From a virus (Duplodnaviria; Heunggongvirae; Uroviricota; Caudoviricetes), in the IMG/VR virus record IMGVR_UViG_3300027770_000048: 64,000 bases of DNA, one strand, 5' to 3'. Below the pieces are notes generated by a model. The model searched no databases, had not been told where the DNA came from, and worked only from the letters and a program-made list of their open reading frames with translations. This document shows positions 6,402 through 51,655 of this stretch, in pieces (within the stretch, counting starts at the first letter, position 1; the number at the start of each line of letters is the position of its first letter). The position numbers and the translations under genes were made by a program.

Positions 6402-6941
6402 ATGTTTGATAAGTTAGTAGATTTATTAGTTAGATTTAGTATGGATATATTGCCATTTGTTATTGTAGAACAATGGAATGGTGCAGTACAGTTAAGATTT
6501 GGAAAGTTTATAAAAGTATTATATCCTGGTATTCATTTTAAGATACCATTTTTTGATTCTATTATTGAATGTCCTGTTATTACTCAGTCAGTCAATTTAC
6601 CCTCACAAACTTTAACCACATTAGACGATGAAAGTATTGTATTAAAATCAATTATCAGATACAAAGTAAGTAATATTAGAACTTACCTATTGGGAGTGAT
6701 GCACGCAAACGATGTCCTAATTGATACGACACAGGGAATGATTAGAGATGTGGTGGAGTTGACAACATGGGATGACTTAGTGGATGTAAACGAAACAATA
6801 ACTAACAAAGTAAAAGAATATGTAGTTAGGTGGGGAATAGAAGTCGAAGCAGTAACAATTACAGATTTGGGAATTGTAAAAAGTTTCCGTATATTTGGAG
6901 ACGAAGCACACAAAACAACAATACTACCAACCGATATATAA
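6402..6941 (+). CDS. hypothetical protein (179 aa)
   Basis: ORF track; first gene after the promoter element. Confidence 0.5.
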   Translation: MFDKLVDLLVRFSMDILPFVIVEQWNGAVQLRFGKFIKVLYPGIHFKIPFFDSIIECPVITQSVNLPSQTLTTLDDESIVLKSIIRYKVSNIRTYLLGVMHANDVLIDTTQGMIRDVVELTTWDDLVDVNETITNKVKEYVVRWGIEVEAVTITDLGIVKSFRIFGDEAHKTTILPTDI

Positions 6942-9537: not shown

Positions 9538-9569
9538 TTTGGTAAAGTGAAAAATTTGTCGTATATTTA
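9538..9569 (+). promoter_or_regulatory. conserved phage promoter element
   Basis: tttggtaaagtgaaaaatttgtcgtatattta; ATG of the UvdE gene is only 5 nt downstream, so the mRNA is probably leaderless. Confidence 0.6.
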
Positions 9570-9573
9570 CTAT

Positions 9574-10461
9574 ATGAGTATAGGATATGCATGTATTAAC
9601 CTTTCATTAGGTAAAAAGATTACAACGAATAGAACAATGGTTAAACGAACTTTCATAGCAAAGGGAGTTGACTATGTATCGGATTTGGTATTGCAGAATG
9701 TTGCAGACTTAGAAAAGATTATAGATTGGAACGAACAAAACGGAATTAAAATGTATCGCATGAGTAGTGAGATGTTTCCGTGGGCAACCGAATACGAATT
9801 TACAGACCTTAAAGATTGGAACGAAATACAAAAGATACTACAAAGATGTGGTGCAAAGGCAACAATGTATAAACAAAGATTATCATTTCACCCCGGTCCG
9901 TTTAATGTATTAGTTTCACCAAAAGAAAATGTGGTATTGAATACGATTAAAGATTTAGAAGTGCACGGCAGAATTATGGACGCAATGGACTTATCTAAAA
10001 CACCTTACAACAAAATTAATATACATTGCAACGGAGTGTATGGAGACAAACGAAGTGCAATGGATAGATTTATAACTAACTTTGACAAACTATCTAATTC
10101 AGTTAAGACAAGACTAACAATTGAAAACGATGACAAAGCAAGTATGTATTCAGTTAAAGACTTAATGTATATACACAATGCAATAAAGATACCTATTGTA
10201 TTTGATTATCACCACCACACATTTAACACAGGAGATTTGAGTGAACGAGATGCATTAGCATTAGCAATTACAACGTGGCCGAAAGGTATAACACCGGCAG
10301 TTCATTATTCCGAAAGTAAAGCATTACATGAAAACAATACAAAAATTAAAGCCCAAGCACATTCCGATTATATTACAACCATCCCCAATACATACGATAT
10401 GGGTGTGGACATTATGGTTGAAGCAAAACAAAAAGATTTAGCAATATTGAAATTTATATAA
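9574..10461 (+). CDS. uvdE: UV DNA damage endonuclease (UvdE family)
   Basis: N-terminus MSIGYACINLSLG matches the UvdE signature (RLGYvC.nL.L); TIM-barrel-like HPGPF, LTIENDD, DYHHH motifs. Confidence 0.8.
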   Translation: MSIGYACINLSLGKKITTNRTMVKRTFIAKGVDYVSDLVLQNVADLEKIIDWNEQNGIKMYRMSSEMFPWATEYEFTDLKDWNEIQKILQRCGAKATMYKQRLSFHPGPFNVLVSPKENVVLNTIKDLEVHGRIMDAMDLSKTPYNKINIHCNGVYGDKRSAMDRFITNFDKLSNSVKTRLTIENDDKASMYSVKDLMYIHNAIKIPIVFDYHHHTFNTGDLSERDALALAITTWPKGITPAVHYSESKALHENNTKIKAQAHSDYITTIPNTYDMGVDIMVEAKQKDLAILKFI

Positions 10462-20301: not shown

Positions 20302-22185
20302 ATGAGAGCAGTCATAATAGGTACAGACTTTATAAAAGATACTGATGGTTCATTCAAAGCGTTGGAAACAAATACCAATATCCAAATGGATATGGATATG
20401 CGATATTATTTTGACCCAACTGTATTTGACACAATAATTAGTGGTAGTACAATTGATGAAATTGTTTTAATTTCAAAACCAGTATTAAATCAGTCAAATG
20501 AATATATTGAATTAGATACTCCAGATACAATTTGGAATGATGAAATACAAGCTCGTACTTTTCCAGAACAATTAAAAATGTATTGTACAGGTTCAAATAT
20601 TACATTTACAGAAACAAATTCAGACAACAACGCGGTTACAATACCATATGTTGAAGATAGTGATAATAAATTAATAATTAGAATTGCTTACGATACAACT
20701 GCTTTAATAGATGATACATACGCAAGAGATAACTGGGAATTTTTAAAGTTAATGCATGATGACAATCCGGATTCTATTGCAAAAACATATATAAACGATA
20801 TAGATTTAGGATTTGATTCAATTGGTACAACTATAAGAGATAATGGAAATCATCCAAATTATTGTATTAAAAAAAGATATACAAATAAAAATGGATTATA
20901 TCCAAAAGTATATAAAATATCTACTCAAGAAGAATTGGCAAATTTAAAAGCAAATTTACAAATAGATGAGTATGTACAAGAATTTATATATAATGAATCA
21001 GACACTATAAATAATAAATTAAAATATTATAGAAGTACGGATTTAGTATACGGACCTGATTTAACTATTTCTAATTTATGGGTGTCCGAACATACCAATT
21101 GGGTTGGTATCGAAGAAAATTGTGATTACGATGATAACAATGAAATACAATATTGGGAAAGGCCAAGATATTTACCAAAACCAACTGACGAATCGACCAA
21201 AACACCTAGATTATCAGGTGATGAAACAACAAAAGTTATTTTACCAGATGGTTCAAATACACTATTATCATCATTAGTAGTAGGGGATTCTATTAAATCA
21301 ATTAACATTCCAGGATTAGATTTAAATGAAACTAATTTTAATTTTTTAACATGGTCAAGTTCATTCAATGATGTTATGAGTGGGTATACTACATCCACAG
21401 CATCTTTACAAAAAATGGAAGAAAAAGAAAGTTGGGTAGGTTGGTTTGTTGAATTTACAACACAAGATGGTATAACTTTTTCAGATGTCTCTCAAGCTGA
21501 AATATTAATTAAATCAGGAGAAACTGACAATTATGTTGTTAAATTTATTGCATATGCCATGCTTAAAGTTAATGATACAGTTTTATTATTTGATAATCAA
21601 ACAAATACATTGGTTGAAAAAGTTATTCAATCCAAATATCATACTTTTGGTAAATCAAATGTATTTGTAGCGGATTTTGAACAAATTGATGTGTTTTTAT
21701 CTTTAGAAGAAACAAATACAGAAACGCCTAGATATGGTATTATCACACACAATTATAACTATGATTGTGCAAGTTATATAAGCAATTGGGGTGGTGGCTA
21801 CCAAGTATTTTGTTATGGATGTTTAAAAGGTAGTTGGAATGGATTTAATGGACCTGGTTGTTGTAGAATAGGTAATTGGTATGGTGGCGTATGGAATATA
21901 GATGTAATATATCCTCCAGGACCACCAGCAATTTTTAATGGATGGTGTAATTGGCAAAAACCTTCGGATATTCGTCTTAAAGAAAATATAGTACTAGTAG
22001 GTAAATCAGAAAGTGGAATTAATATATATCAATACAATTATAAAAATGATTTAAAATTATATGAGGGTGTTATTGCACAAGAATTGATTGGTACTAAATT
22101 TGAAGATGCTCTTATTATTGAAAAAGATGGTATGTATTCAGTAGATTATAAAAAATTAGATGTAGAGTTCAAAAAAATAAATTAA
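20302..22185 (+). CDS. tail fibre/tail spike-like protein with C-terminal intramolecular chaperone (peptidase S74) domain
   Basis: C-terminus PSDIRLKENIVLVGKSESGINIYQYNY...GVIAQEL...YSVDYKKL matches the S74 auto-cleaving chaperone of phage fibres; Cys/Gly/Trp-rich insert NYDCASYISNWGGGYQVFCYGCLKGSWNGFNGPGCCRIGNWYGG. Confidence 0.65.
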   Translation: MRAVIIGTDFIKDTDGSFKALETNTNIQMDMDMRYYFDPTVFDTIISGSTIDEIVLISKPVLNQSNEYIELDTPDTIWNDEIQARTFPEQLKMYCTGSNITFTETNSDNNAVTIPYVEDSDNKLIIRIAYDTTALIDDTYARDNWEFLKLMHDDNPDSIAKTYINDIDLGFDSIGTTIRDNGNHPNYCIKKRYTNKNGLYPKVYKISTQEELANLKANLQIDEYVQEFIYNESDTINNKLKYYRSTDLVYGPDLTISNLWVSEHTNWVGIEENCDYDDNNEIQYWERPRYLPKPTDESTKTPRLSGDETTKVILPDGSNTLLSSLVVGDSIKSINIPGLDLNETNFNFLTWSSSFNDVMSGYTTSTASLQKMEEKESWVGWFVEFTTQDGITFSDVSQAEILIKSGETDNYVVKFIAYAMLKVNDTVLLFDNQTNTLVEKVIQSKYHTFGKSNVFVADFEQIDVFLSLEETNTETPRYGIITHNYNYDCASYISNWGGGYQVFCYGCLKGSWNGFNGPGCCRIGNWYGGVWNIDVIYPPGPPAIFNGWCNWQKPSDIRLKENIVLVGKSESGINIYQYNYKNDLKLYEGVIAQELIGTKFEDALIIEKDGMYSVDYKKLDVEFKKIN

Positions 22186-22358
22186 TATGTCAACAGAAGT
22201 AAACAAAAATATAAAATGGGCAACTATGGATGAAACCATGAGAATGTCAAAAAAAGTTGTTAACAATCAAACTAAAATTTCATTATCAAATACAATAACT
22301 GCATTTATTAATGCAATTAAAACAAAGCATTTGAGTTAGTTTATTTAATTAAAAGGTT

Positions 22359-22658
22359 ATGATTTCTAAAATAAAAGAGATAGCACAGGCCTGGATTATT
22401 TCCGCAAGGCCATCACCAGCACAAAAAAAGTTAGCAGAGGCTAGATATAATGTTTGTATTAATTGTGTACATTATAGAGAAAAAAGACCAATAACAGGAG
22501 AAGAATATTGTAGTGATTGTGGTTGTACACTCTCTGCAAAAATTTTTACTACTGCAACCTATATGGCCGATAGTAAAAGTTGTCCATTGGATAAATGGAA
22601 AGAAGTTGAAGATTTATATTGGCCCAATACACAAAAGGGTAAAAAATCTATATTATAA
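22359..22658 (+). CDS. Cys-rich zinc-finger protein (99 aa)
   Basis: CINCVHYREKRPITGEEYCSDCGC...CPLDKW gives CxxC...CxxCxC...C. Confidence 0.5.
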   Translation: MISKIKEIAQAWIISARPSPAQKKLAEARYNVCINCVHYREKRPITGEEYCSDCGCTLSAKIFTTATYMADSKSCPLDKWKEVEDLYWPNTQKGKKSIL

Positions 22659-23032
22659 TGATTGAGGTAATTTCACCTATCCAAAAATTAGAATTAAGAT
22701 ATTTTGGAGAAAAAAAAGGTTATGGCGTTTTTACATTAAATGATATAAAAAAAGACGAAAAAATAGAAATATGTTATTGTATTGATTTAGAAACATCACC
22801 CCAATCAATGTGGAGAAAATGGAAATATTGGAATAGAGAATTTAAAAAACCAGTATTGGCATTGGGGTATGGGTCTATATATAATCACTCATATACTCCA
22901 AACATTCATTATTATTTTGAGTCTGATTACATATTAGTTATGTATGCATTACGAGATATTAAAGAGGGTGAAGAATTATGTCATGATTATGGTCAAAATT
23001 ATTTTAAAGTATTTCCAACTAATATTATATGA
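22658..23032 (+). CDS. SET-domain protein (viral SET-like lysine methyltransferase)
   Basis: GEKKGYGVF (GxG), YNHSYTPN (NHSCxPN-like) and GEELCHDYG (ELxxDY) in a 124-aa protein, the same size class as chlorovirus vSET. Confidence 0.75.
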   Translation: MIEVISPIQKLELRYFGEKKGYGVFTLNDIKKDEKIEICYCIDLETSPQSMWRKWKYWNREFKKPVLALGYGSIYNHSYTPNIHYYFESDYILVMYALRDIKEGEELCHDYGQNYFKVFPTNII

Positions 23033-24309
23033 AAATTTATGTGCATCATTACTATACTAAATCGTTATTTTATAAATTAGCACATAATACAACGAATAGA
23101 ATATTTAACATTCAAAATGAAATTGGCCATATTAAATGTAATTATAAAAATTTAGAATTAGAATTTATATTTAATCCCGAATTAAATGATAATGACGATG
23201 GATTTCATTTAATTGATTTTTTAACGATACTTTCACAATTAAACAAAGATAATAAATTTAATTCAATAGATTGTTTTAATAAAAAAAAAGGTGAAGATTC
23301 ACATAGAGGTAAATGGGGTGCAGAATTCGGTGTAAACGATGTACCAATAATGAAATGGATAGCCGATACATTACAAAACAAAAAAGATTGGTTAGTATGT
23401 TTGTTTAGAACAGAAAAGTCATTTGTAAAATATGATGGCATATCCTATTATCCAATACAGGAGTTAGAAACACAAATAAATAGATTAACTAATCACAAAT
23501 TAATAACTGATAATTTTTTTATAAATGATATCATTGAACAAAATTATCCAAATCATTATTTTGCTTTAACAAATACAATACATGAATGGAATGATTTATT
23601 ATCCATTCGTTGGTATTATGAATTTAAAAACATTTTTGAAAAATTAAAACAACCATATGATTTGTGTTTCTCAATGAGATATCATAAGAGAAATAGAACT
23701 CATATAATAAATGGTTTAAGTAATTTAAATAATCCAAAAATTTACCTATCAAGGGTTGATAATTGTGTAAATAATGAATACTCAATTTATTCAAAAGAAA
23801 TTAAAAATAATAATATAAATTTTAATATAACAAATGGTAATGATTTTGATGATATAAGTTGGATTGAAAATATAGAACACTATTTAGATTACTTAATGAG
23901 AATTTTACCAATGTCTAAAATGCACATTTTATCAGAAACATGGGACTGGGTACCTGGAAACTTAACATCAAATTATTTGTCTGAAAAAACTTATGGTTTT
24001 GCATTAGCAAATATTCCATTCATTTCAACACATTCTTATCCAATGGAAATATTACAAAAAATGTTAAATATAGAACCACACCCATTTTATGAAGAATCAA
24101 AAAAGTGTAATGGAAAACCACATTTATTTATAAAATTTGTAGAAAACTTTATGGAAAATTTTGAAATTAATTATAATTTGTGTATATTGTGGTCTAATAT
24201 TTGTCATCAAAAATTAATTGAAAAAATAAATAATGAAAATTCATTTTTAGATTTAATTAATATAGATTTTAAAAAAGAAAGAAAAATTATAAAAAAAACA
24301 TTAATATAA
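23029..24309 (+). CDS. hypothetical protein (426 aa), possibly a transferase of the accessory module
   Basis: ORF track; no confident motif. Confidence 0.5.
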   Translation: MKIYVHHYYTKSLFYKLAHNTTNRIFNIQNEIGHIKCNYKNLELEFIFNPELNDNDDGFHLIDFLTILSQLNKDNKFNSIDCFNKKKGEDSHRGKWGAEFGVNDVPIMKWIADTLQNKKDWLVCLFRTEKSFVKYDGISYYPIQELETQINRLTNHKLITDNFFINDIIEQNYPNHYFALTNTIHEWNDLLSIRWYYEFKNIFEKLKQPYDLCFSMRYHKRNRTHIINGLSNLNNPKIYLSRVDNCVNNEYSIYSKEIKNNNINFNITNGNDFDDISWIENIEHYLDYLMRILPMSKMHILSETWDWVPGNLTSNYLSEKTYGFALANIPFISTHSYPMEILQKMLNIEPHPFYEESKKCNGKPHLFIKFVENFMENFEINYNLCILWSNICHQKLIEKINNENSFLDLINIDFKKERKIIKKTLI

Positions 24310-24311
24310 AA

Positions 24312-25043
24312 ATGTTAGTTAACAATAAATTTTATTTTATAAGTTTACCTAGATGTGCATCCACTTCTTTTATGATATCTTGTATAAAAAATAAACTAAA
24401 GATAAATCATATAGATGAGGTAGTCGACAATCAATTAGATAATATGGTTGATTGGGAAAAAATGTCCAATGAGTCACTTGCTGATTCATTATTACATGGA
24501 CATGAACCATTATATAATTTAGAAAATAAATTTGGAAATAATTTCCCCATAATAACAATTAGAAGAAATAGACATGAAAGATTTATATCATTATGGAAAC
24601 ATATCATAGATGAATCATATAGAACAAATGATATGAACACATTTGAAATTTTACAAAAACTAAAAGTAGATGATATTCTATTTTTTAATAGTCAAGATAT
24701 TTTTGATGATGAAAAACGTTCAATAATGATTAAAACATTTTTAGAAAAAAATAACCTAACCGATGCTTCTATTTATTTTAAAATGGTATTTTCAACAATA
24801 TTAATAAGGCCGTATTCATTTTATCATCACCACGATGATAGAATAATATGGTTTGATTTTGATAAATTATATGAATTAGAAGATTGGGTTTCAAATATTT
24901 TAAATATAGATTTTAAATTAGAAAAAATAAATTCAAGTCAACATTTTGATTGTGCATTAAAATTGGATGATTATTTTATTGAAAAATATAATAAAATATA
25001 TGATGTGTATGATTTTAGGAAGGAATTAAAAACAATAATCTAA
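24312..25043 (+). CDS. sulfotransferase-like protein (low confidence)
   Basis: ISLPRCASTSF resembles the 5'-PSB motif PKxGTT; IRRNRHERFISLW resembles the 3'-PB motif RxPxxRxxS. Confidence 0.4.
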   Translation: MLVNNKFYFISLPRCASTSFMISCIKNKLKINHIDEVVDNQLDNMVDWEKMSNESLADSLLHGHEPLYNLENKFGNNFPIITIRRNRHERFISLWKHIIDESYRTNDMNTFEILQKLKVDDILFFNSQDIFDDEKRSIMIKTFLEKNNLTDASIYFKMVFSTILIRPYSFYHHHDDRIIWFDFDKLYELEDWVSNILNIDFKLEKINSSQHFDCALKLDDYFIEKYNKIYDVYDFRKELKTII

Positions 25044-25048
25044 ACATT

Positions 25049-25648
25049 ATGGAGAGAATATTTTTTAATAATGAAATTGTTTATTATAAAGTACAATATA
25101 TTCCACTAACAAATAAAGATATATTGATTAATCATATTAATAAATTAATAGAATTACAAGAAGAAACAGCTATAAATGATGGGTATGATATAAATATTGA
25201 TGATGATTTAATTATAGACATAATTGAATTTGGTATAGACAAATGTAAGGAATTATATTTAGAGAATGGAAATAATGTTGAAACAATTTTACATGATTTG
25301 TGGTTAAATAGAGTAAGAAAATATAGTGAACAATTACAAGCAACTACTTTAAAAAATCCTATTTTTCATAATCACAAGACATTAAATGAACAAAGAAATA
25401 TATTCATACCCGATTATACATTTGTTTATTATCTTCAAATGCAAAATAATCTGACAGGTAATGAAGGACATCTGATGATTAAAAATAAATCAGGTGAGAT
25501 ATATTCATTTTTACCGGAAGAAAATGATTTGATAATAATGGGTGGTGATGTACCACATTCACCTGTTCCAGCGGCCAATAATACAAAAGATAGATTAGTA
25601 ATTGCAGGAAATGTTAGTTTTAAATATCATAAAAAAAAGATAATATAA
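25049..25648 (+). CDS. hypothetical protein, possible cupin/2OG-oxygenase-like paralog
   Basis: Weak HxH...H pattern (FHNHK ... VPHSP ... DRLVIAG); adjacent to a clear 2OG oxygenase. Confidence 0.35.
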   Translation: MERIFFNNEIVYYKVQYIPLTNKDILINHINKLIELQEETAINDGYDINIDDDLIIDIIEFGIDKCKELYLENGNNVETILHDLWLNRVRKYSEQLQATTLKNPIFHNHKTLNEQRNIFIPDYTFVYYLQMQNNLTGNEGHLMIKNKSGEIYSFLPEENDLIIMGGDVPHSPVPAANNTKDRLVIAGNVSFKYHKKKII

Positions 25649-26155
25649 ATGATACAAGTTATTGATAATATTTTGAATGAAACCGAATTAAATGAATTAG
25701 ATTTTATTTGTAATAATTTTTATACACACATTAAACCAGTGGTATTACCAAACGGTAATTTTAATTCTTATTATAGAAATCATATAAATAAGGAAACATC
25801 ATTATTAGATTTTCAAAAAAGAATAGTAGATAAAATTCAATCTAATTTATTTTTACAAAGTAATATCATTGATATGTGGATAAATAAAATAACCAATGAA
25901 ACAAATCAAAATGATAAATTTCATAAAGATATTTCGGATTTATCAGTTGTTATTTTTTTAAATGATAATATAATTGGTGGTGAATTAATGTATGAGTTAG
26001 ATGATGAAATTTATAATATAAAACCTAAAAAAAATACTGCAATTATTATGGATAATAAACTATCACATAAAGTATCTCCAGTATATGAAGGTATTAGATA
26101 CACTTTTGTAATCTTTTTAGATACAATAAAAAAAAATAAAAAAACAATAATATAA
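25649..26155 (+). CDS. 2OG-Fe(II) oxygenase (prolyl 4-hydroxylase-like)
   Basis: FHKDISD (HxD), IGGELMY, LSHKVSPVYEGIRYTFVIF (second His + RxS/T). Confidence 0.65.
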   Translation: MIQVIDNILNETELNELDFICNNFYTHIKPVVLPNGNFNSYYRNHINKETSLLDFQKRIVDKIQSNLFLQSNIIDMWINKITNETNQNDKFHKDISDLSVVIFLNDNIIGGELMYELDDEIYNIKPKKNTAIIMDNKLSHKVSPVYEGIRYTFVIFLDTIKKNKKTII

Positions 26156-26159
26156 GACA

Positions 26160-26615
26160 TTGCAATACTATCAATTAAATAAAGAAGATTATGTTATAGA
26201 AAAACAATTACATATTGAAAGATTGGAATTGGATAACATAATTACGTTAGAATATTTTACACCTAATATACAATTTTTAATAGATTCATTTAATAAAGAA
26301 TATCAATGGGATGGTATGTTTGATATTGAGGAAGTTAAGAATAGAATTATCAACGGACATATATTATTTATATTATACTATGATAATCAACCAATCGGTT
26401 ATGTTTGGTTTAAAAAGTTGGATGATACTACATGCTTTGGTTATAATCTATATGTAACAAAACAAATAGAAAGACCGAAGGATTCACCCAAATGGTTTTA
26501 CAATAAAGTAAGTGGTATTATGTTGGAAAAATATAATAATATCAATGTCGAAATAGAAGATTGGAATAAAGTTGTGTTTGATTTGGTTGAAAGTATTGGT
26601 TATAAAGAAATATAA
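26160..26615 (+). CDS. hypothetical protein (151 aa)
   Basis: ORF track. Confidence 0.4.
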   Translation: MQYYQLNKEDYVIEKQLHIERLELDNIITLEYFTPNIQFLIDSFNKEYQWDGMFDIEEVKNRIINGHILFILYYDNQPIGYVWFKKLDDTTCFGYNLYVTKQIERPKDSPKWFYNKVSGIMLEKYNNINVEIEDWNKVVFDLVESIGYKEI

Positions 26616-26616
26616 T

Positions 26617-27222
26617 ATGAACACACTATGGACATTTGGGGATAGTTTTACCGAAGGACATGGTTGTCGTATTGAAGATGAATATTATAAAAATTATTGG
26701 AAATTAGGAGATAAAATATGGCCGGTTTGGTTAAGTGAATTGTTAGATGTTAATTTAATAAATTGTGGAGTGGGTGGTTATTCAAACGATATGATACTTG
26801 ATTCCATAATCGATAATTGGTTACAAATTAAAAAAAATGACTATGTGTTTATTGGGTTTACTTACCCACATAGATTTGATGTTCCAATTGACAATAAATT
26901 AAAATCAATTGTACATGATTTTAAAGACGCAAATTTAAAAAAAGAAGAAATTGAAACAATCATAAATTTTCAACATTATTTTTCAGATAACATATTGTAT
27001 CAAGATAGACAAATGAAAAGATTTAAATGGATTAAAGAATTATTAATTTCAAAAGGTTGTAAATTGGTTGTTTTATGGGACGTTCAAATTGATATAAAAA
27101 ATTTAGAAACCATTACAGGAGTTACTAATCAAAATATAATAGATGGACATCTTTCATATAATTCTCATAAAATGTTAGCTATGCAATTTTATAAAAAGTA
27201 TATAAAAAAAGATTTAATTTAA
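26617..27222 (+). CDS. SGNH/GDSL hydrolase
   Basis: Trimmed to ATG 26617; MNTLWTFGDSFTEGHG (block I GDS) and DGHLSYNSH (block V DxxH). Confidence 0.7.
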   Translation: MNTLWTFGDSFTEGHGCRIEDEYYKNYWKLGDKIWPVWLSELLDVNLINCGVGGYSNDMILDSIIDNWLQIKKNDYVFIGFTYPHRFDVPIDNKLKSIVHDFKDANLKKEEIETIINFQHYFSDNILYQDRQMKRFKWIKELLISKGCKLVVLWDVQIDIKNLETITGVTNQNIIDGHLSYNSHKMLAMQFYKKYIKKDLI

Positions 27223-27263
27223 ATTGTTGATTATCAATGAGTTATAACAAATACCTTAAAATA

Positions 27264-27295
27264 GTTGGTAATGTCAAATATTTGTCGTATATTAG
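27264..27295 (+). promoter_or_regulatory. conserved phage promoter element
   Basis: gttggtaatgtcaaatatttgtcgtatattag. Confidence 0.6.
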
Positions 27296-27323
27296 AGTAT
27301 TATAAACAATTAAACTCTAAATT

Positions 27324-27971
27324 ATGAAACTAAAGACAGAACAAGAATTACAAGCAAACTACGATAGATTTATCGGAATTATTAAAAAATATTTTACAGG
27401 AGAAAGATTGGAAAAATTACTCCATATGTATTCCGAAGAAGAATTGGGTGTTAACCTTACACTATCCGCTGCATCCGGCTCAAAACACTATCATAACGCA
27501 TATATAGGTGGGTATATTGACCACATCTTTAATGTATGTAAGAACGCCCTTAAAATGAGAGACCTGTTCGTATTGCAAGGTGGAGAGATTGATTTTACCG
27601 AAGAAGAATTGATATTTAGTTGTCTACATCATGATTTAGGAAAATTGGGTGTTAAAGGTGAATTACATTATTTACCAAACCAAGAAGAATGGTCTCAAAA
27701 GAAATACGGAACTTTATTTGTTCGTAATGAAAATATTCCATATATGACTTTAACGGATAGAACTTTCTTTACTCTTAATCACTATGGTATTCAGTATAAT
27801 GAGAAAGAATATTTTGCAATCAAACTTACCGATGGTATGTATGACGAAGATAATCAAAAGTATTTAGCAGGTCACGACTTAAAGAAACAATTAGTTTATA
27901 AGTTACAATTTATCATGCATTGGGCAGACCATATGTCAACAATCATCGAAAGACAAGATAACGTAATTTAA
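27324..27971 (+). CDS. HD-domain phosphohydrolase
   Basis: HYHNAYIGGYIDH ... CLHHDLGK ... HWADH gives H..H...HD...D. Confidence 0.65.
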   Translation: MKLKTEQELQANYDRFIGIIKKYFTGERLEKLLHMYSEEELGVNLTLSAASGSKHYHNAYIGGYIDHIFNVCKNALKMRDLFVLQGGEIDFTEEELIFSCLHHDLGKLGVKGELHYLPNQEEWSQKKYGTLFVRNENIPYMTLTDRTFFTLNHYGIQYNEKEYFAIKLTDGMYDEDNQKYLAGHDLKKQLVYKLQFIMHWADHMSTIIERQDNVI

Positions 27972-28091: not shown

Positions 28092-28496
28092 ATGATGATT
28101 AATGAATTTGACAGATTATTAAACGATTGGTTTGCAGAGGATGCATACCAAAACTGGACATCGGCTAGAAAAACAACAACCTATGTTCCAAACAAATTTG
28201 CAGTAGATATTAAAGATGAATCTGCAACAATTGCTTTATCGGTATTAGGGCACAACCCAGACGATATTGAAATTAATTGTTTTGAGGACAAAATTGAAAT
28301 TAAAGCTAAAAAGACACATGAGGATATAGAACATCCCTTTAATCAATTGGTTTCGGACATTGAAGAAAGAATCCAAATAGGTAAAAACTTCGATGGTAGA
28401 AACGCAAAAGCTGAGATTAAAAATGGTATTCTCTTAATTACTCTTGAAAGAAAAGAAGAGTCCAAACCAAAAAAATTAACCTTAAAAGTTGGTTAA
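28092..28496 (+). CDS. Hsp20/alpha-crystallin family small heat-shock protein
   Basis: FAVDIKDE...IEIKAKK...AEIKNGILLITLERKEE matches the alpha-crystallin domain pattern. Confidence 0.65.
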   Translation: MMINEFDRLLNDWFAEDAYQNWTSARKTTTYVPNKFAVDIKDESATIALSVLGHNPDDIEINCFEDKIEIKAKKTHEDIEHPFNQLVSDIEERIQIGKNFDGRNAKAEIKNGILLITLERKEESKPKKLTLKVG

Positions 28497-28520
28497 TTCA
28501 GTTATTTTTCGTATATTACA
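28487..28520 (+). promoter_or_regulatory. promoter-like element (partial consensus)
   Basis: ttggttaattcagttatttttcgtatattaca: TTGG + 19 nt + TAtaTTac. Confidence 0.4.
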
Positions 28521-28521
28521 A

Positions 28522-28553
28522 AGGTAGGAGATTAAACACTTCTACCTTTTTTT
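28522..28553 (+). terminator. rho-independent terminator-like hairpin
   Basis: aggtaggagattaaacacttctacc + tttttt. Confidence 0.5.
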
Positions 28554-31476: not shown

Positions 31477-32112
31477 ATGAAATTGATAGTTGACAAAGGT
31501 TCAAACGGACTAACAACAAAAGAGTTTACGGAGTATCTAAAAACTCCTGTATTAAAATCAAAAATAACTCAACAAGAAGCCGATGTATTAAGAAAACAAT
31601 TAGAACAAGGTTTAACCGAATATCCTGGTTTAGGTATTTCTGCAACTCAATTGGGAATTAAAAAAAGAGCATGTTATATTAAATTTGGAGATGAAGAACT
31701 ATTTTTAGTAAATCCAATTATAAAGGAAAAGTCAAAGGAAGGATTTCTTTTTTATGAAGGATGTTTATCAATACCATCATCAATTACAAAACCGACTAGA
31801 ACTATTAGAGCTTGTAAGGTAGTAATTGATACAGATAATTTGGGTGAATTGACATTTGAAATTAATCCAGAAGGTGATAAAGCAAATGAACAAGTTTCTA
31901 AAGAAACAATGATGACTGTTATCGTTCAACATGAAATTGACCATTTGGATGGGTTTACAATTAAAGATAGAGTATATAATACACAGGTTGTAAAAAAAGT
32001 AGATTTTGGTAGAAATGATAAAATTGTAATGAAATCTAAAGAGGGTGAATTAGTTGAAGTTAAATATAAAAATGCAAACAAATATTTTTTAGAAGGATAC
32101 GAAATAGTTTAA
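31477..32112 (+). CDS. def: peptide deformylase
   Basis: GLGISATQLG (GxGxAAxQ), EGCLSIP (EGCLS) and VQHEIDHLDG (QHExDH). Confidence 0.85.
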   Translation: MKLIVDKGSNGLTTKEFTEYLKTPVLKSKITQQEADVLRKQLEQGLTEYPGLGISATQLGIKKRACYIKFGDEELFLVNPIIKEKSKEGFLFYEGCLSIPSSITKPTRTIRACKVVIDTDNLGELTFEINPEGDKANEQVSKETMMTVIVQHEIDHLDGFTIKDRVYNTQVVKKVDFGRNDKIVMKSKEGELVEVKYKNANKYFLEGYEIV

Positions 32113-33071: not shown

Positions 33072-34769
33072 ATGATACAATTGGGTTTATCGGCATTTTA
33101 CCATGATTCTGCAGCAGCATTGGTTATAGATGGTAAAGTTATATGTGCAATTGAAGAAGAGAAACTATCCGGTGAAAAGCATGATAGTTCTTTTCCGTTT
33201 AAAGCAATTCAATGGTGTTTAGAATATGCAAAAATAACAATTGATGAAATTGATATGGTTTGTTGGTATGAGAACCCAAACGACAAATTTGAAAGAGTTA
33301 GAGAAACAATTGGTAAGTGGGGTGGTTTAAGATTTCCAATGAAATGGAGACAATTTTTAAAAAGATGGAATCAATCGGAAGGTAATTTAAAAGGAATATT
33401 AAAATCAATTGGATATACAGGAGAAATTTTATATTCATTACACCATCACTCACATTTAGCACTATCTTACTATACATCACCATTTGATAAAGCAATAGGA
33501 TTGTCAATTGACGGAGTAGGAGAAAGACATTCGGTATACGCTACAATGTGTGATGATAAAGGATTTCATACAATACAAACATTACAATTTCCAGATTCTT
33601 TGGGATTAGTTTATTCAGCATTCACTGCTTATTTAGGATTCAAACCAAACGAAGGTGAATATAAAGTGATGGGACTTGCTCCATATGGTGATAATCAAAA
33701 ATATAATAACACATTTGATAAGGTTGCAACCATTGGTGGCGAAATTGATGTTGTAAAAATGGATATGTCTTACTTTACATGGCATACATCGGATAACGAT
33801 ATGTTTAATAATAAGTTGATTGATTTAATTGGATTTCCACCTCGTTTCAAAGATGAACCCATAGAACAACATCATAAAGATTTAGCTGCTTCATTACAAA
33901 GATGGTATGAAAGTGCATTATATTTTATTATCAATAGAATCACTAATACATGGGAATGTGAAAATTTAATATTAGGGGGCGGGTGTGCTTATAATGGAAC
34001 TGCAAATGGTAAAATTAAAACATCTACATCAATCAAAAATGTATGGATACCATTTGCTCCATCAGATGCTGGTTCTGCAATTGGTGCATGTCTATATCAT
34101 TATCATCAAACATTCGGCAATCCAAAAGTAAAAGGTGGTGATAATCAATCTCCATATTTAGGTGAAGAGTGGAGTAGTCCTGAATTACTTAAAATTATAT
34201 TACAAAATCATAGAAGTAAAGTTATAATGCATGATACACATCAGACACTATGTAAAGAAGTTGCAAAGTTAATTGAACAGGGTAATATTATAGGTTGGTT
34301 TCAAGGTAGAACTGAATTTGGTGCAAGAGCATTAGGTAATCGTTCTATATTGGGTAATCCACATTTATCAGACATTAGAGATAGAATTAATAAGGTTGTC
34401 AAAAAGAGAGAAATGTTTAGACCATTTGCTCCAACGGTTACAATAGAAGATTATCAAACGTATTTTCTATCAGAAGAAGAAGTTCCATACATGAATCAAG
34501 TTGTCAAAGTTAAAAAGGATGTAAATATTCCGTCAGTAACTCATATTGACAATTCTGCAAGGATACAGACACTTAAAAGAGAGGATAACCCACTTTACTA
34601 CGACTTACTTAAAGCATTCGAAAAACTAACAGGAACACCCATTCTATTGAATACATCTTTTAACTTAAAAGACCACACAATGACAAATGACCCACAAAAA
34701 GCAATTTGGACATTTCATAATTGTGATATGGATTATTTAGTATTGGGTAAATTTTTGATAAGTAAATAA
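33072..34769 (+). CDS. carbamoyltransferase (NodU/CmcH/TobZ family)
   Basis: N-terminus LGLSAFYHDSAAALVIDGKVICAIEEEKLSGEKHDSSFP is the family hallmark; C-terminal RALGNRSILGNP motif. Confidence 0.85.
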   Translation: MIQLGLSAFYHDSAAALVIDGKVICAIEEEKLSGEKHDSSFPFKAIQWCLEYAKITIDEIDMVCWYENPNDKFERVRETIGKWGGLRFPMKWRQFLKRWNQSEGNLKGILKSIGYTGEILYSLHHHSHLALSYYTSPFDKAIGLSIDGVGERHSVYATMCDDKGFHTIQTLQFPDSLGLVYSAFTAYLGFKPNEGEYKVMGLAPYGDNQKYNNTFDKVATIGGEIDVVKMDMSYFTWHTSDNDMFNNKLIDLIGFPPRFKDEPIEQHHKDLAASLQRWYESALYFIINRITNTWECENLILGGGCAYNGTANGKIKTSTSIKNVWIPFAPSDAGSAIGACLYHYHQTFGNPKVKGGDNQSPYLGEEWSSPELLKIILQNHRSKVIMHDTHQTLCKEVAKLIEQGNIIGWFQGRTEFGARALGNRSILGNPHLSDIRDRINKVVKKREMFRPFAPTVTIEDYQTYFLSEEEVPYMNQVVKVKKDVNIPSVTHIDNSARIQTLKREDNPLYYDLLKAFEKLTGTPILLNTSFNLKDHTMTNDPQKAIWTFHNCDMDYLVLGKFLISK

Positions 34770-35197: not shown

Positions 35198-36469
35198 ATG
35201 TACGATAATATAACTACAAACTCCGAATTCACCGGTGATAGTGGTAATGATATGAATATATTTCTAGCTAATGTTAGAAAAGTGTATACAAAAATTCAAG
35301 AAATAAAAGATGATAAACTTGAATATAATATTACTGCAAGTGTAATTTATAATGAAAATAAATATAAAGACAAAGACCCTGATGTTAGATTTTTAGGTGC
35401 CATTCAATTTCAAAGAGAACATTCAATTTATTTAGAAGATTATGCTATTCCGTTTGATAAAAACAATATGACATATCCAATAGTAGGAGAAACTGTTCTA
35501 ATTTTAGATATAGGTAAACAACACTTTTGGTTACCATTTTCTAATACACAATATCCCAATTATAGAGAAGATTTAAAAACTACAATAGCAAGTCAAGCAG
35601 TAGAGTATGTGGGTTCTTCACAATCAAACAAAAATTATAAAGAGTCGGCCGCAACAGGTATACCTGAAAAATCGGATGCTGGTAAGCAAAAAAATAAAAG
35701 AGAATATAAAGTAAATGAAAAAATACATTTCTTACAACCTAGAAACGGTGATACATTTATAACAGGTAGAGTTGGTAATACTATTCGATTTTCAGAATTT
35801 TTTTTAACTGAAGATGGTAAAACTTCTTCGCCTGGTATATTCATTCGTAATAAACAAAACCCAAGTTTAAATAGTAAAAAATTAGGTGAATTAATTGATG
35901 AAGATATTAATAAAGATGGGACATCTATTTATTTAACATCTGGAAAAATAAAAGTTCCATTTAAAGAAACGATATCTAAATCAAAAACAGCATTTTCAGG
36001 ATACCCATCATCTGGCAATTTAACAGGTGACCAATTAATTGTCAATTCCGATAGAATTATTTTATCAGCAAAAGCAAGTGAATTTATTATATTTGGTAAA
36101 GGAAATACCGGAATAATAACGGATGGTGTTTGTTCAATAGATGCTGCAAGTGCGGTATATCAGCATTCGGATGGAGACATTACTTTACATACCGGAACTA
36201 AAATATATCTAAATACGGAGGGTAGTGGCCAAGTATATTTGGGAAGTGATAGTGGTGTAGGTGATGCAGGTGCGGATGTTCAACAAATGGTATTAGGTGG
36301 AGAATTGGTTGATGTATTAACTTCATTAATAGATTTAATTACAAATCAAGTATTTTATACACCTGCAGGCCCCTCTGCTATTGGGCCGGTTAATACGCCA
36401 GGATTTAAAGAATTACAAGGAAAATTAGATGTTATTTTATCTGCAAGAAATTTCTTAAGTAAAAGTTAA
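35198..36469 (+). CDS. putative baseplate hub/central spike-like structural protein
   Basis: Position upstream of the gp25-like gene; C-terminal beta-repeat-like segment (GDQLIVNSDRIILSAKASEFIIFGKGNTGIITDG...ITLHTGTKIYLNTEGSG). Confidence 0.35.
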   Translation: MYDNITTNSEFTGDSGNDMNIFLANVRKVYTKIQEIKDDKLEYNITASVIYNENKYKDKDPDVRFLGAIQFQREHSIYLEDYAIPFDKNNMTYPIVGETVLILDIGKQHFWLPFSNTQYPNYREDLKTTIASQAVEYVGSSQSNKNYKESAATGIPEKSDAGKQKNKREYKVNEKIHFLQPRNGDTFITGRVGNTIRFSEFFLTEDGKTSSPGIFIRNKQNPSLNSKKLGELIDEDINKDGTSIYLTSGKIKVPFKETISKSKTAFSGYPSSGNLTGDQLIVNSDRIILSAKASEFIIFGKGNTGIITDGVCSIDAASAVYQHSDGDITLHTGTKIYLNTEGSGQVYLGSDSGVGDAGADVQQMVLGGELVDVLTSLIDLITNQVFYTPAGPSAIGPVNTPGFKELQGKLDVILSARNFLSKS

Positions 36470-36474
36470 TTCAA

Positions 36475-37851
36475 ATGGTCTACATTCCTATAACAAGTCG
36501 TCATGGAGCGGAACAACAAACATTAACTCGAAAACAAGAGAAAGCGCAAAACGACGCCAAAAAGAAAGAATTTAAAAAAACCGAAGCTCAAAAAGAAACC
36601 AAAGCTACTAGAAAAAAAGCAATGGCAGACGCAGCTGATAAAAAGAAAAAACAAATAGAGGCCTCTGGTAGTTGGGGACAGTTTTATTTTAATATGAGAA
36701 CTTTTTTGACAAAAGACAATCCAAGTCAATTATTTGGAATTGAAGGAGATACGTTAAATAAAGCAACAAAAGCTTTTAAAAGTTATCAAAATTTTATAAA
36801 AAGGAAAAGAGCAATAACATACGATAGACGGAGTGGTAAAGTGGCTCTTGATTTTAAAATAGGGGTTAAATTATTAAAAAAACAAGCTAAAGAAATAGCG
36901 GAGGGGTCGGCCGAAAAAGAAAATACAAAAAGAGATTCCGGAGCAGAACATGTATTAAATTATTTAGAAACTGCAGAATGGGTTGAAACTTTTTTATCAG
37001 AATATGAATATGTTATTGTATCAGGCTGGTGTGCTTTTCCTGGATTTTTACATGTTGAGCAGGCGGGTTTTAAATCTACAAACTTTGTAGAAACAAAAAC
37101 AAGCAACGTATTTGGAGAAAAAAATATATTCGGGGGCCAGAAAAAACGAAGAACATTCAAATTTAAGAAAAAATCAATTGCAAGTTTAATAAATTATGGA
37201 TTAAATGAAGCAAATCAAGCTTTAGCTAGTTTAATGATTGATTCCATTAAATATGACCCAAAGGGCGATTTGATGCAAAAAGTTGCACTTATTATAATGG
37301 GTTGGTGGGCATTTAGACAACTCAATAGAGATGATACACCCATTTTTGCAACACCTCCCGCTTTAAGAACTCCTGGAGATAGAACCATTATGGGTTTTGC
37401 TATTTTTCCTGGAGTTTTTATACCCGTTCCTTTGTTACCAAGCGGAACAGTTGACCAATGGTTACTTAGTTTTATAGTAAATGCAAATCTACATCTATTA
37501 ACAATTGTTGGAGCAACGATAACATTTCATAAAACATCATTGACAGGTATACCTATCCCAGCTATGGTGACACCTTGGTTTGGTTATATAACAAAACCAT
37601 TTGCAGTACCTGTAATAAATCCATTTAGTAAACCACTTAAAGAAATGTTACAAAACCCTAAAGAATTACTTGCAGAAGTAAAAGAGAATTTAATTGATTT
37701 TGGTGCAGGAAAATTAATAGAAGGAACAGTTGAATCAATTAAAGAAAGAGGGGTAGTGGGGTCAATCGATGCTGCAGGACAGGCAATATCGGCTGGGGCA
37801 ACCGCAACTAAACAAATAGCTACCGATGCTATAAATAGAGTAGGTGGGTAA
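36475..37851 (+). CDS. hypothetical structural protein (458 aa)
   Basis: Lys-rich N-terminus, hydrophobic core; within the baseplate module. Confidence 0.45.
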   Translation: MVYIPITSRHGAEQQTLTRKQEKAQNDAKKKEFKKTEAQKETKATRKKAMADAADKKKKQIEASGSWGQFYFNMRTFLTKDNPSQLFGIEGDTLNKATKAFKSYQNFIKRKRAITYDRRSGKVALDFKIGVKLLKKQAKEIAEGSAEKENTKRDSGAEHVLNYLETAEWVETFLSEYEYVIVSGWCAFPGFLHVEQAGFKSTNFVETKTSNVFGEKNIFGGQKKRRTFKFKKKSIASLINYGLNEANQALASLMIDSIKYDPKGDLMQKVALIIMGWWAFRQLNRDDTPIFATPPALRTPGDRTIMGFAIFPGVFIPVPLLPSGTVDQWLLSFIVNANLHLLTIVGATITFHKTSLTGIPIPAMVTPWFGYITKPFAVPVINPFSKPLKEMLQNPKELLAEVKENLIDFGAGKLIEGTVESIKERGVVGSIDAAGQAISAGATATKQIATDAINRVGG

Positions 37852-38848: not shown

Positions 38849-40867
38849 ATGGCAATTAAACCTTTAAATAAATCTTGGGGAACCGGTAAAGATATAAACT
38901 ATATTGGTAAAGATTTTTCGGCATTTAAACAAAATTTGGTAAATTTTACTCAAACATATTTTCCAGATAGTTATGCTGATTTTTCCGAAGCTTCACCTGG
39001 TACCATCTTTATTGATATGGCATCTTATGTTGGTGATGTTCTTTCCTTTTATCAAGACACCCAATTAAAAGAATCAATGTTAGCAAATGCTACCGAACGT
39101 AAAAACGTTATAGCACTTGCACAAACAATGGGGTATAAACCAAAATTAACATCACCTGCAACTACAACTATTAAAGTTTATCAAATCGTCCCATCATTGG
39201 GGTCAGCTGGTAATTACGCGCCCGATTCTAAATTCTATTTAAAAGTAAAGGAAGGAATGGAAATAAAATCCAATAACAATTCCAATATTATATTTAGAAC
39301 AACAGATTCGGTAGATTTTGAAAATGAAATAGATAGAGAAATTAATGTATACGAACGAGATGCAACAGGAGTTCCCACACAATATCTAATTAGTAAATTA
39401 GTAAAAGCTATATCTGCAAATGAGGTCTCTACTACATTTATGATGGGTGGTGATGTAGATTATCCAACCATAACATTGACGGATACTAATATTATTCATA
39501 TAGTTTCCGTAACCGATGGTAATAATAACAAATATTATGAAGTTCCATATTTGGCACAGGAAAGTATATTTGTTGAACAACCTAATATGGAATATAATGG
39601 TGCACTATATACATCATCTTCAATAGTTCCTTATATTTTAGAAGTTCAAAAAGTTCCTAGAAGATATTCGGTAAAATTGAATGCAAATAATACAACGGAT
39701 TTACAATTTGGTAGTGGTGATATCACAATGAATGATGAAATTATATTACCAAATACAAAAAATGTAGGATTAGGATTGGCCAATTCTATCAATAGATTAA
39801 ATCAAGGAATAGACCCTTCAAATTTTTTAAAAACAAATACATTTGGTATTGCACCTACAAATACAACATTAACTGTGAAGTATTTGGTCGGCGGTGGAAT
39901 TAACTCGAATATAAATACAGGTGATTTAACCAACATTACCAGATTAGAATACGAAGAAGATTTATTATCTTTGAATGACGATAATTTGAGAATATACAAC
40001 CAAATTAAAACAACATTAGCAGTTGAAAACATTGAACCTGCAGTGGGTGGAAGGGGTGCAGAAAGTATTGAAGAAATTAGACAAAATGCATTAGCAACAT
40101 TTGGTTCTCAAAATAGAGCAGTAACCAGACAAGATTATGTTGTAAGAGCATTATCAATGCCAGCTAGATATGGTAGTGTTGCAAAAGTATATGTAAGTCC
40201 TGATGGTGAAATAGATAATAATTCACCAGCTTCTATATTAGCAAGTCCCAACAATATAGCTGAATTTACAAATTTAGTAGATTCTATGAAAGGTATGGCT
40301 AAATCAGAAATTCAAAAAGAATTAGTTAAATACTTAACACAAAAAAAGAGTGCAATTGCAGAGGTTAATAACCCATTTGCAATTAATATGTATGTTTTAG
40401 GATATAATAGTGATAAAAAATTAACACAATTAAATCAAGCAATCAAACAAAATCTTAAAACCTATTTAGGTGAATATAGAATGATTACCGACGCAGTTAA
40501 TATGATTGATGGGTTTATAGTTAACATCGGTTGTGATTTTGAAATAATTGTTTATTCAAATTATAATAAAAGAGAAGTTCTTACATCTTGTTTAGCAGAA
40601 GTTCAATCTTATTTCGATATAGATAATTGGACATTTAATAAACCAATAAACATTTCCGAAATAGAATTATTACTTGCAAATATAGAAGGGGTTATGAGTG
40701 TTCCATCGGTTAAAATTCATAACCTGTGTGCGGGTGACGGAGAATATTCACCAAATAGATACAATATGGATGAAGCAACTAAAGGTAAGATTGTCTATCC
40801 TTCTTTAGACCCATGTATATTCGAAGTAAAATTTCCTAACAAAGACATAAAAGGGAGGGCATTATAA
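38849..40867 (+). CDS. baseplate J-like (gp6-like) protein
   Basis: 672 aa directly downstream of the gp25-like gene, as in T4/P2 baseplate operons. Confidence 0.5.
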   Translation: MAIKPLNKSWGTGKDINYIGKDFSAFKQNLVNFTQTYFPDSYADFSEASPGTIFIDMASYVGDVLSFYQDTQLKESMLANATERKNVIALAQTMGYKPKLTSPATTTIKVYQIVPSLGSAGNYAPDSKFYLKVKEGMEIKSNNNSNIIFRTTDSVDFENEIDREINVYERDATGVPTQYLISKLVKAISANEVSTTFMMGGDVDYPTITLTDTNIIHIVSVTDGNNNKYYEVPYLAQESIFVEQPNMEYNGALYTSSSIVPYILEVQKVPRRYSVKLNANNTTDLQFGSGDITMNDEIILPNTKNVGLGLANSINRLNQGIDPSNFLKTNTFGIAPTNTTLTVKYLVGGGINSNINTGDLTNITRLEYEEDLLSLNDDNLRIYNQIKTTLAVENIEPAVGGRGAESIEEIRQNALATFGSQNRAVTRQDYVVRALSMPARYGSVAKVYVSPDGEIDNNSPASILASPNNIAEFTNLVDSMKGMAKSEIQKELVKYLTQKKSAIAEVNNPFAINMYVLGYNSDKKLTQLNQAIKQNLKTYLGEYRMITDAVNMIDGFIVNIGCDFEIIVYSNYNKREVLTSCLAEVQSYFDIDNWTFNKPINISEIELLLANIEGVMSVPSVKIHNLCAGDGEYSPNRYNMDEATKGKIVYPSLDPCIFEVKFPNKDIKGRAL

Positions 40868-41922: not shown

Positions 41923-41924
41923 CA

Positions 41925-43070: not shown

Positions 43071-43076
43071 TAGATT

Positions 43077-51582: not shown

Positions 51583-51605
51583 TCGGAGAATAAAATAAAA
51601 ACTAT

Positions 51606-51631
51606 GGCCCACCTTAATTTGGTGGGTTTTT
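51606..51631 (+). terminator. rho-independent terminator
   Basis: gcccaccttaatttggtgggt + tttt. Confidence 0.65.
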
Positions 51632-51655
51632 AGTTTTAAGATATTTATAAGTGAT

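Follow-up and report, generated by a model that had tools for sequence, protein, structure and literature searches.

A predicted minimal SET-domain methyltransferase carried in a variable gene island of a putative T4-like aquatic myovirus

What a tailed phage would do with a SET domain, and whether that domain would act with a partner, are the questions raised by a short locus in the IMG/VR virus record IMGVR_UViG_3300027770_000048 (Caudoviricetes), of which a stretch of 64,000 nucleotides (nt), hereafter the window, was analysed. Here a gene for a 124-amino-acid (aa) SET-domain protein follows directly on a gene for a small protein with six cysteines (Cys6), and an original prediction, made from the sequence alone, had read the two as a functional pair. 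We propose that the SET protein is probably a stand-alone protein-lysine methyltransferase dependent on S-adenosylmethionine (SAM), resembling the chlorovirus enzyme vSET, carried as island cargo and independent of Cys6, a reading that draws on sequence and on modelled structure. A minimal enzyme of about vSET size would thereby transfer a methyl group from SAM to the epsilon-amino group of a protein lysine, would work independently of the Cys6 protein upstream, would be borne as island cargo by large T4-like myoviruses of one aquatic lineage, and during infection would modify an abundant basic nucleic-acid-binding protein of the host.

The Pfam SET profile (PF00856) matches residues 21–112 of the open reading frame (ORF) over its full length (profile positions 1–105 of 105, E 2.4e-15), and the score of 57.2 bits against a gathering cut-off of 22.4 is far beyond chance. 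The hallmark stretches on which the original prediction was built, GEKKGYGVF, YNHSYTPN and GEELCHDYG, are all present in the 124-aa ORF at 22658–23032, and its placement in the vSET size class is borne out by a length close to the 119 aa of PBCV-1 vSET (phmmer E 5.6e-10). The NHS/CxxPN motif of SET domains takes part in SAM binding and forms one side of the pseudoknot. In an alignment of 26 family sequences seven residues (G21, G23, E37, G70, N76, E106 and Y111) do not vary, H77 and N82 being conserved in at least 90%, and in the phmmer alignment Y115-F116 lies opposite the YW of vSET. The gene is under purifying selection, with a ratio of nonsynonymous to synonymous substitution rates (dN/dS) of 0.12 against the 88%-identical relative L001.

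Structure prediction and alignment with vSET, which had been suggested as a check, likewise recover the SET fold. An AlphaFold2 (AF2) model built from the family alignment (predicted local distance difference test, pLDDT, 84.7; predicted template modelling score, pTM, 0.77) has 335 Foldseek matches in the PDB at E<=1e-3. The first 50 of these are SET methyltransferases without exception, led by Set7 (template modelling score, TM, 0.75, query-normalised), PFL0690c and vSET. The SET beta-clip fold is thus predicted for the 124-aa protein, and the pseudoknot is implied by superposition of the model onto the whole of vSET (3kma; TM 0.83, target-normalised; root-mean-square deviation 2.3 A over 106 columns). 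A phmmer search of all PDB sequences gives the same leading matches (Set7 5h6z, E 2e-10; vSET 1n3j, E 5.6e-10; PFL0690c 4rz0), followed by SUV420H, MLL3, ASH1L and others.

From the sequence and the model we infer that the protein is enzymatically active. It might instead be a non-catalytic module with a SET fold (a binding protein or a decoy), or act on a substrate other than protein, and three points lean that way: the DYxF stretch of the family is changed to KWKYW in the window lineage, the island neighbours include enzymes of carbohydrate and small-molecule type, and an origin of the SET beta-clip from SAF-type carbohydrate-binding domains has been proposed (Aravind et al. 2011, cited in PMC3980110). 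These points are met by SAM-binding and catalytic motifs that are all intact and invariant, by strong purifying selection on the gene, and by close structural matches that are without exception active lysine methyltransferases, and we consider a non-catalytic role, or a substrate other than protein, so improbable that we give it hardly any weight.

Among the closest known parallels to the predicted methyltransferase is vSET (PBCV-1 A612L; 1n3j, 3kma), the chlorovirus enzyme that methylates histone H3 at K27, which is likewise viral, about 120 aa long and a bare SET core. The two share the GYGVF, NHSxxPN and xxYG motifs and have C-terminal tails of similar length, but are only ~24% identical and differ in the lysine-channel stretch, DYLF in vSET and KWKYW in the window protein. 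Since a bacterial host has no nucleosomal H3, the substrate must also differ from that of vSET. Schizosaccharomyces pombe Set7 (5h6z; 36% identity, E 2e-10, TM 0.75), among the best matches in both sequence and fold, and Plasmodium falciparum PFL0690c (4rz0; 31–32% identity) have the same minimal architecture; they differ in being eukaryotic chromatin enzymes, and Set7 (169 aa) has extra C-terminal residues. Go1-SET, cpnSET and hundreds of uncharacterised bacterial SET proteins of 120–170 aa are small single-domain proteins like the one in the window, a likeness that for Go1-SET and cpnSET is one of description and not of direct homology comparison. Unlike these prokaryotic stand-alone proteins, the window protein is encoded by a phage and lies in a variable island. 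Also comparable are the tailed-phage SET proteins A0A6J5L8Y2, A0A6J5SSB1, A0A6J5P3I3 and A0A6J5PTS6 (uncultured Caudovirales) and ORF62 of phage Ps15, which are known from annotation only; no activity, substrate or island analysis of them was found in the literature.

The supposed pairing with Cys6 was drawn from the TAATG junction between the two ORFs, which is real. Start/stop overlaps or gaps of 1–6 nt are however the norm throughout the gene string around SET (22185/22187, the ATGA at 23029–23032, 24309/24312, 25043/25049 and 25648/25649), and as tight junctions are generic along the operon the TAATG overlap says nothing specific about these two genes. When the window proteins were compared by tblastn with all fetched loci, and the gene tables read, SET was found directly adjoining Cys6 in the window and in L001–L006, which are nearly identical to it, and nowhere else. 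In these close relatives, in which SET is 89% identical, the gene order is the same (627 aa, 50 aa, 99 aa, SET, 426 aa, 243 aa and onward), but this is due to shared ancestry and is not evidence of coupling. Elsewhere the two genes stand apart or in a different order, or SET is missing. SET lies 1.4–5 kb downstream of Cys6 in L014, L015, L017 and L019, and on the upstream side of the fibre gene in L020, L022, L035 and L036; it is missing from L007–L010 and L050–L052, where Cys6 stays behind the gene for the 627-aa fibre-like protein. L051 is a clean case of presence or absence of a single gene exactly at the position of SET in the window: Cys6 ends at 5268 and the homologue of the 426-aa gene begins 19 nt on, at 5287, with no SET between them. 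No SET gene was found within 6 kb in any of the 17 Cys6-anchored IMG/VR loci, the Cys6 gene is missing from 27 of the 36 SET-anchored viral loci, and at 80 bacterial SET loci no homologue of Cys6 lies within 5 kb.

A model in which the cysteine-rich protein and SET are translationally coupled, the zinc protein targeting SET or supplying a zinc module like that of pre-SET or post-SET regions, would account for the 1-nt overlap, for the adjacency kept in L001–L006, for the presence of both genes within the same ~10-kb region in 9 of the 36 viral SET loci, and for their complementary charges (isoelectric point, pI, 8.9 for Cys6 and 6.3 for SET). It is nonetheless largely refuted by synteny. Adjacency is confined to one shallow lineage of ~88% nucleotide identity, deeper relatives vary in distance and order or lack SET (including 4 of 4 loci of the L007 type), and the partner with which Cys6 is conserved is the fibre-like gene upstream. 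The SET protein is itself a bare core without pre-SET, post-SET or large i-SET (the domain takes up residues 21–112 of 124 aa), and its three cysteines form no part of a CxCx4C motif. NHS is followed by tyrosine and not by the cysteine that would be a post-SET zinc ligand, which makes a zinc cluster formed in trans unlikely; a pre-SET or post-SET cluster contributed by Cys6 was rejected on this NHSY together with the pattern of Cys6 (CxxC...CxxCxC...C), which is not CxCx4C. We conclude that the pair is not supported and very unlikely, and that Cys6 is a conserved neighbour unrelated to SET.

Cys6 belongs to a family of its own. Its cysteines, at residues 33, 36, 51, 54, 56 and 75, have the spacing CxxC-x14-CxxCxC-x18-C, and relatives number 7 clusters by single-sequence search and at least 113 by profile search, these 113 being of 74–110 aa and found on contigs of up to 388 kb. 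Invariant in an alignment of 53 sequences are R29, C33, C36, C51, C54, C56, K61, C75 and W80, within the signature R-x3-C-x2-C ... C-x2-C-x-C-P-[LI]-S-K-K-[IV]-F ... C-P-x2-K-W. The Pfam family DUF6171 (PF19668) is matched by 11 of the 53 aligned relatives (best E 9.4e-6) and for one database relative a match to PF19668 had been precomputed; the window protein itself has no Pfam match at E<=0.01. Both families are of small cysteine-rich proteins with no function assigned, but Cys6 differs from DUF6171 in its distinctive N-terminal helical hairpin and its invariant CPLSKKIF...CPxxKW signature. The AF2 model (pLDDT 88.4) consists of this hairpin, a cysteine-rich knuckle region and a C-terminal helix. 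A Foldseek search of the model against the PDB gave no match better than E 2.7, the family profile found only chance-level matches among PDB sequences, tblastn against GenBank phages found none, and NCBIfam gave nothing useful for SET, Cys6 or their neighbours; in PHROGs the protein matches phrog_13558, of unknown function (E 6e-8). It is basic (pI 8.9, family median 8.6), and metal binding is plausible from its sequence. The Cys6 gene lies 3' of the homologue of the 627-aa fibre-like gene in every related locus that holds both (L007–L010, L014, L015, L017, L019, L020, L022, L035, L036 and L050–L052), which suggests a real functional link of Cys6 with the fibre-like gene rather than with SET. 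The small ORF of 50 aa between the two, conserved in L001–L006 and 44% identical in L050, is therefore probably a real gene.

SET is thus single-gene cargo of a low-GC variable island (Table 1) that comes and goes among related phages. Between the Cys6 and HD-hydrolase-like flanks, the island is essentially empty (~0.5 kb) in L053 and L061, measures 4.2 kb without SET in L051, and reaches 7.6–7.9 kb with other contents in L014, L017 and L019. In the window the island coincides with a dip in GC content, to 21.6–26% across 22–28 kb compared with ~30% elsewhere. The accessory enzyme module at whose head SET had been placed is present: 2OG-Fe(II) oxygenases, a GNAT-like and an SGNH-like protein follow. 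In phages generally, paralogues of the 2OG-Fe(II) oxygenases, seen at 13 loci, and the flank genes are the commonest neighbours of SET. L011–L013 (GCA_900659685.1 / GCA_900659695.1 and a JGI contig of 163 kb) represent another phage group, with a SET 40% identical to that of the window, different neighbours (unknown proteins of 208 aa and 269 aa, DUF932 and Sulfotransfer_2), and a 41%-identical homologue of the 215-aa HD-like gene ~3 kb downstream of SET; this region is a comparable island with other cargo.

The absence of any convincing terminator-like hairpin between 20302 and 28520 suggests that SET is probably transcribed in one long + strand unit of ~20.3–28.5 kb that starts after the 327-nt gap before the fibre-like gene and likely ends at the hairpin at 28520–28549, the only strong one downstream of that gap. 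A motif resembling the T4 late promoter, TATAAATA, lies 11 nt before the ATG of the fibre-like gene; its count in this AT-rich window is that expected by chance (23 found, 22.3 expected) and it was therefore not used as promoter evidence, and a scan for sigma-70 promoters was uninformative in DNA of 25–30% GC.

This arrangement bears on the possibility that SET acts on the virion, either by methylating a phage protein (the fibre-like protein or another virion component, with effects on stability or receptor binding) or by being packaged itself, as vSET is packaged in the chlorovirus particle. The gene does stand in the same gap-free string as the fibre-like gene, with the TATAAATA motif ahead of it, and in related phages SET lies within ~1.5–5 kb of the fibre gene, on either side. 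That proximity is explained by the neighbouring island, however, and the motif is at chance frequency; L007 and L050–L052 have the same fibre gene without SET, so the fibre does not need SET; and the SET homologues of 384 cellular genomes are not accompanied by fibre genes. A virion-related role therefore seems unlikely to us.

The predicted host substrate is the part of our proposal that we put forward most tentatively. The known substrates of stand-alone prokaryotic SET proteins are chromatin proteins: Go1-SET of Methanosarcina acts on MC1-alpha at K37, and cpnSET of Chlamydia on Hc1 and Hc2 (PMC3980110). By analogy with these two, acting on MC1-alpha and Hc1, and with vSET, acting on H3K27, an abundant basic nucleic-acid-binding protein of the host would be the foremost candidate, and the mildly acidic pI of SET (6.3, family median 5.7) is compatible with basic substrates. 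The targets named in the original prediction, host nucleoid or ribosomal proteins or a phage protein, are likewise conjectural. Several observations weigh against the overall proposal or parts of it. The choice of substrate is an argument from analogy only, and gene context gives no clue to it: mining the neighbourhoods of 124 SET genes from phage and bacterial loci produced no partner suggestive of a substrate, the largest neighbour family common to bacterial SET loci being found in 6 of 80 and the "partners" in phages being island or flank genes. In the 26-sequence alignment the window lineage has KWKYW where the family has DYxF, a stretch that, going by vSET, we take to line the lysine channel, and the window protein may accordingly depart from the family in its specificity for substrate and product. 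Co-transcription with the fibre-like gene could point to a virion-related role instead. Finally, the separation of viral from cellular SET proteins described below comes from a crude neighbour-joining (NJ) tree without support values.

Small SET proteins are common. A word-indexed search of 5.8 billion proteins found 25 clusters, nearly all of 118–163 aa and with PF00856. An exhaustive phmmer search of 1.84 billion representatives gave 2019 proteins at E<=1e-3, of which 134 reach E<=1e-10; the usual length is 115–170 aa. Some relatives (P0036, P0040, P0042, P0046, P0051 and others) are 260–310 aa long with two SET-matching stretches, tandem minimal SET proteins reminiscent of a covalently linked vSET dimer. 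A scan with a single peptide pattern (one genome per species) found SET proteins of the GYGSIYNH type, 35–44% identical to that of the window, in 384 bacterial and archaeal genomes, including Saprospiraceae, Chitinophagales, Flavobacteriales, Patescibacteria, Gammaproteobacteria (among them Coxiellaceae), Chlamydiae and Woesearchaeota; these relatives are mostly 120–145 aa long. The same kind of scan found SET relatives on 36 viral contigs in IMG/VR. Identity to relatives outside its own lineage is at most about 44–45% (45% for P0004, which has a 117-aa gene upstream of its SET).

The view that SET domains are rare in tailed phages broadly holds for reference phages, since tblastn of the window protein against 50,697 GenBank phage records returned only 2 matches, which are duplicate records of a single 735-kb metagenomic megaphage, and PHROGs contains no convincing SET family (best E 0.0018). 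The window protein is not unprecedented, however, given the IMG/VR contigs, the uncultured Caudovirales proteins and Ps15. The best match in a viral structure library is A0A6J5L8Y2 (128 aa, 34% identity, TM 0.76), followed by three more Caudovirales SET proteins and many from giant viruses, and ORF62 of Stenotrophomonas phage vB_SmaM_Ps15 is listed as a SET domain protein among its unknowns (PMC9025141). A 2014 review of bacterial SET proteins makes no mention of phages (PMC3980110), and we found no functional study of any phage SET protein in the literature. In the NJ tree most SET proteins of viral contigs, including that of the window, fall in a cluster apart from the cellular ones, suggesting that they have long been resident in phages and were not captured recently. 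Phage SET proteins make up a sizeable group, apparently an old one. A bolder form of our proposal, in which a phage-specific clade of minimal SET proteins, carried as island cargo by a widespread lineage of large aquatic myoviruses, methylates lysine on a protein of the bacterial host during infection (candidates would be translation factors and nucleoid-associated or ribosomal proteins), is conceivable but on balance doubtful.

At the sequence level, then, the SET domain itself is ordinary, and the window protein is a further example of a small type that abounds in bacteria and of which phage metagenomes already contain annotated members; a specialist would be moderately surprised. New here are the finding that the gene is mobile cargo of an island within a defined lineage of phages, the size and apparent age of the phage SET group, and the recognition that the neighbour read as a "zinc finger" is conserved but unrelated to SET. 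Phages are known to modify host proteins by ADP-ribosylation, phosphorylation and acetylation; the literature we searched describes no phage SET enzyme characterised as methylating lysine, and the window protein with its viral relatives, at least about 36 in number, offers a compact and easily expressed 124-aa candidate. If a host lysine is indeed methylated, this would be, as far as the literature we found goes, the first demonstrated phage protein-lysine methyltransferase in host takeover. It would match in prokaryotes the strategy of chloroviruses with vSET, and might connect the minimal SET proteins of bacteria or phages with those of giant viruses in evolution. A variable island with fixed flanks in uncultured aquatic myoviruses would also be useful for studying the swapping of accessory enzymes.

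Table 1. Position of the SET gene, its motifs, its neighbours and other features of the window
Feature	Position	Strand	Description
SET gene	22658..23032	+	124-aa minimal SET-domain protein, predicted SAM-dependent protein-lysine N-methyltransferase
GxG SAM-binding motif	22718..22726	+	G21-Y22-G23; aligns with GYG of vSET
NHSxxPN motif	22883..22903	+	N76-H77-S78-Y-T-P-N82; aligns with NHSKDPN of vSET
ELxxDY motif	22970..22993	+	E105-E-L-C-H-D-Y111-G, putative catalytic Tyr111; Y111 aligns with Tyr of vSET ISYG
Cys6 gene	22359..22658	+	99-aa basic putative metal-binding protein, distantly DUF6171-like; conserved left flank of island
TAATG stop/start overlap, Cys6 to SET	22656..22660	+	TAA 22656–22658 shares 1 base with ATG at 22658
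ATGA start/stop overlap, SET to 426-aa gene	23029..23032	+	read from the sequence
Variable accessory island	22658..27323	+	7 genes, 4.7 kb, low GC, between Cys6 and HD-hydrolase-like gene
627-aa tail-fibre-like gene	20302..22185	+	C-terminal Peptidase_S74 (E 2e-4); virion-structural/tail-fibre PHROGs; first after 327-nt gap
50-aa ORF	22187–22339	+	between fibre-like gene and Cys6; kept in L001–L006, 44% identical in L050
426-aa gene	23029–24309	+	no Pfam, PHROGs or NCBIfam family match; 63–66% identical in L050–L052; dN/dS 0.08
243-aa gene	24312–25043	+	sulfotransferase-like motifs ISLPRCASTSF and TIRRNRHERFISLW; no significant match
Two adjacent 2OG-Fe(II) oxygenase paralogues	25049–26155	+	199 aa and 168 aa; P4H-like, PF13640
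GNAT-like ORF	26160–26615	+	151 aa; weak match; TTG start
GDSL/SGNH-like ORF	26572–27222	+	216 aa; TTG start
HD/metal-dependent-phosphohydrolase-like gene	27324..27971	+	215 aa; phrog_28876 (E 1e-7); weak MobH-relaxase HD match; right flank of island
Intrinsic-terminator-like hairpin	28520..28549	+	11-bp stem and T run
SPFH/Band 7 protein	6402–6941	+	
UvdE UV-damage endonuclease	9547–10461	+	E 1e-64
HSP20	28092–28496	+	
Peptide deformylase	31477–32112	+	
Nol-like carbamoyltransferase	33072–34769	+	E 8e-116
T4-type baseplate wedge protein	38849–40867	+	phrog_219 (E 7e-25)
1756-aa ORF among baseplate/tail genes	44383–49653	+	no PHROG match at E<=1e-5
Fused SbcD/SbcC-like ORF	54550–57699	+	1049 aa; apparent gp47/gp46-type nuclease; SbcD-like residues 6–337, SbcC-like 279–1048 (PHROGs)

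Among the neighbours of SET, the 243-aa protein is not claimed as a sulfotransferase: the likeness is one of motifs, and its BLASTP match to a PF03567-annotated protein of L011 has an E of 0.16. The TTG starts of the GNAT-like and SGNH-like ORFs and their 44-nt overlap leave the true start codons uncertain. The Peptidase_S74 domain of the 627-aa protein is an intramolecular-chaperone domain and is preceded by a Cys/Gly-rich stretch. The 215-aa HD-like protein is 94–95% identical at the amino acid level in L014 (9089–9733), L016 (5397–6041), L017 (11314–11958), L019 (10542–11186) and L051 (9463–10107), in contigs where its neighbours are only 40–80% identical to those of the window, and has thus either been unusually strongly conserved or recently exchanged.

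The window as a whole appears by its gene content to derive from a large, uncultured aquatic T4-like myovirus. Its long ORFs all lie on the + strand, its GC content is ~30%, and its phage hallmarks include a 1556-aa tail fibre, a DNA primase and the SbcC/SbcD-like fusion protein in addition to the baseplate protein. No tRNA genes were found in the window, several ORFs of 350–460 aa near the 1756-aa ORF (35198–37851, 40867–44360 and 50335–52819) have no Pfam or PHROG match, and megablast of 10 kb against GenBank phages gave no nucleotide match. The genes for the SPFH protein, UvdE, HSP20, peptide deformylase and carbamoyltransferase are auxiliary genes typical of aquatic phages. Among cultured phages, Microcystis phage Mel-JY01 and Flavobacterium phage immuto come nearest; the relationship to Flavobacterium phages, with the abundance of SET in Saprospiraceae and Chitinophagales, makes Bacteroidota a candidate host group. 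The baseplate protein is ~39% identical to its counterparts in Mel-JY01, in the immuto group and in a 484-kb metagenomic phage.

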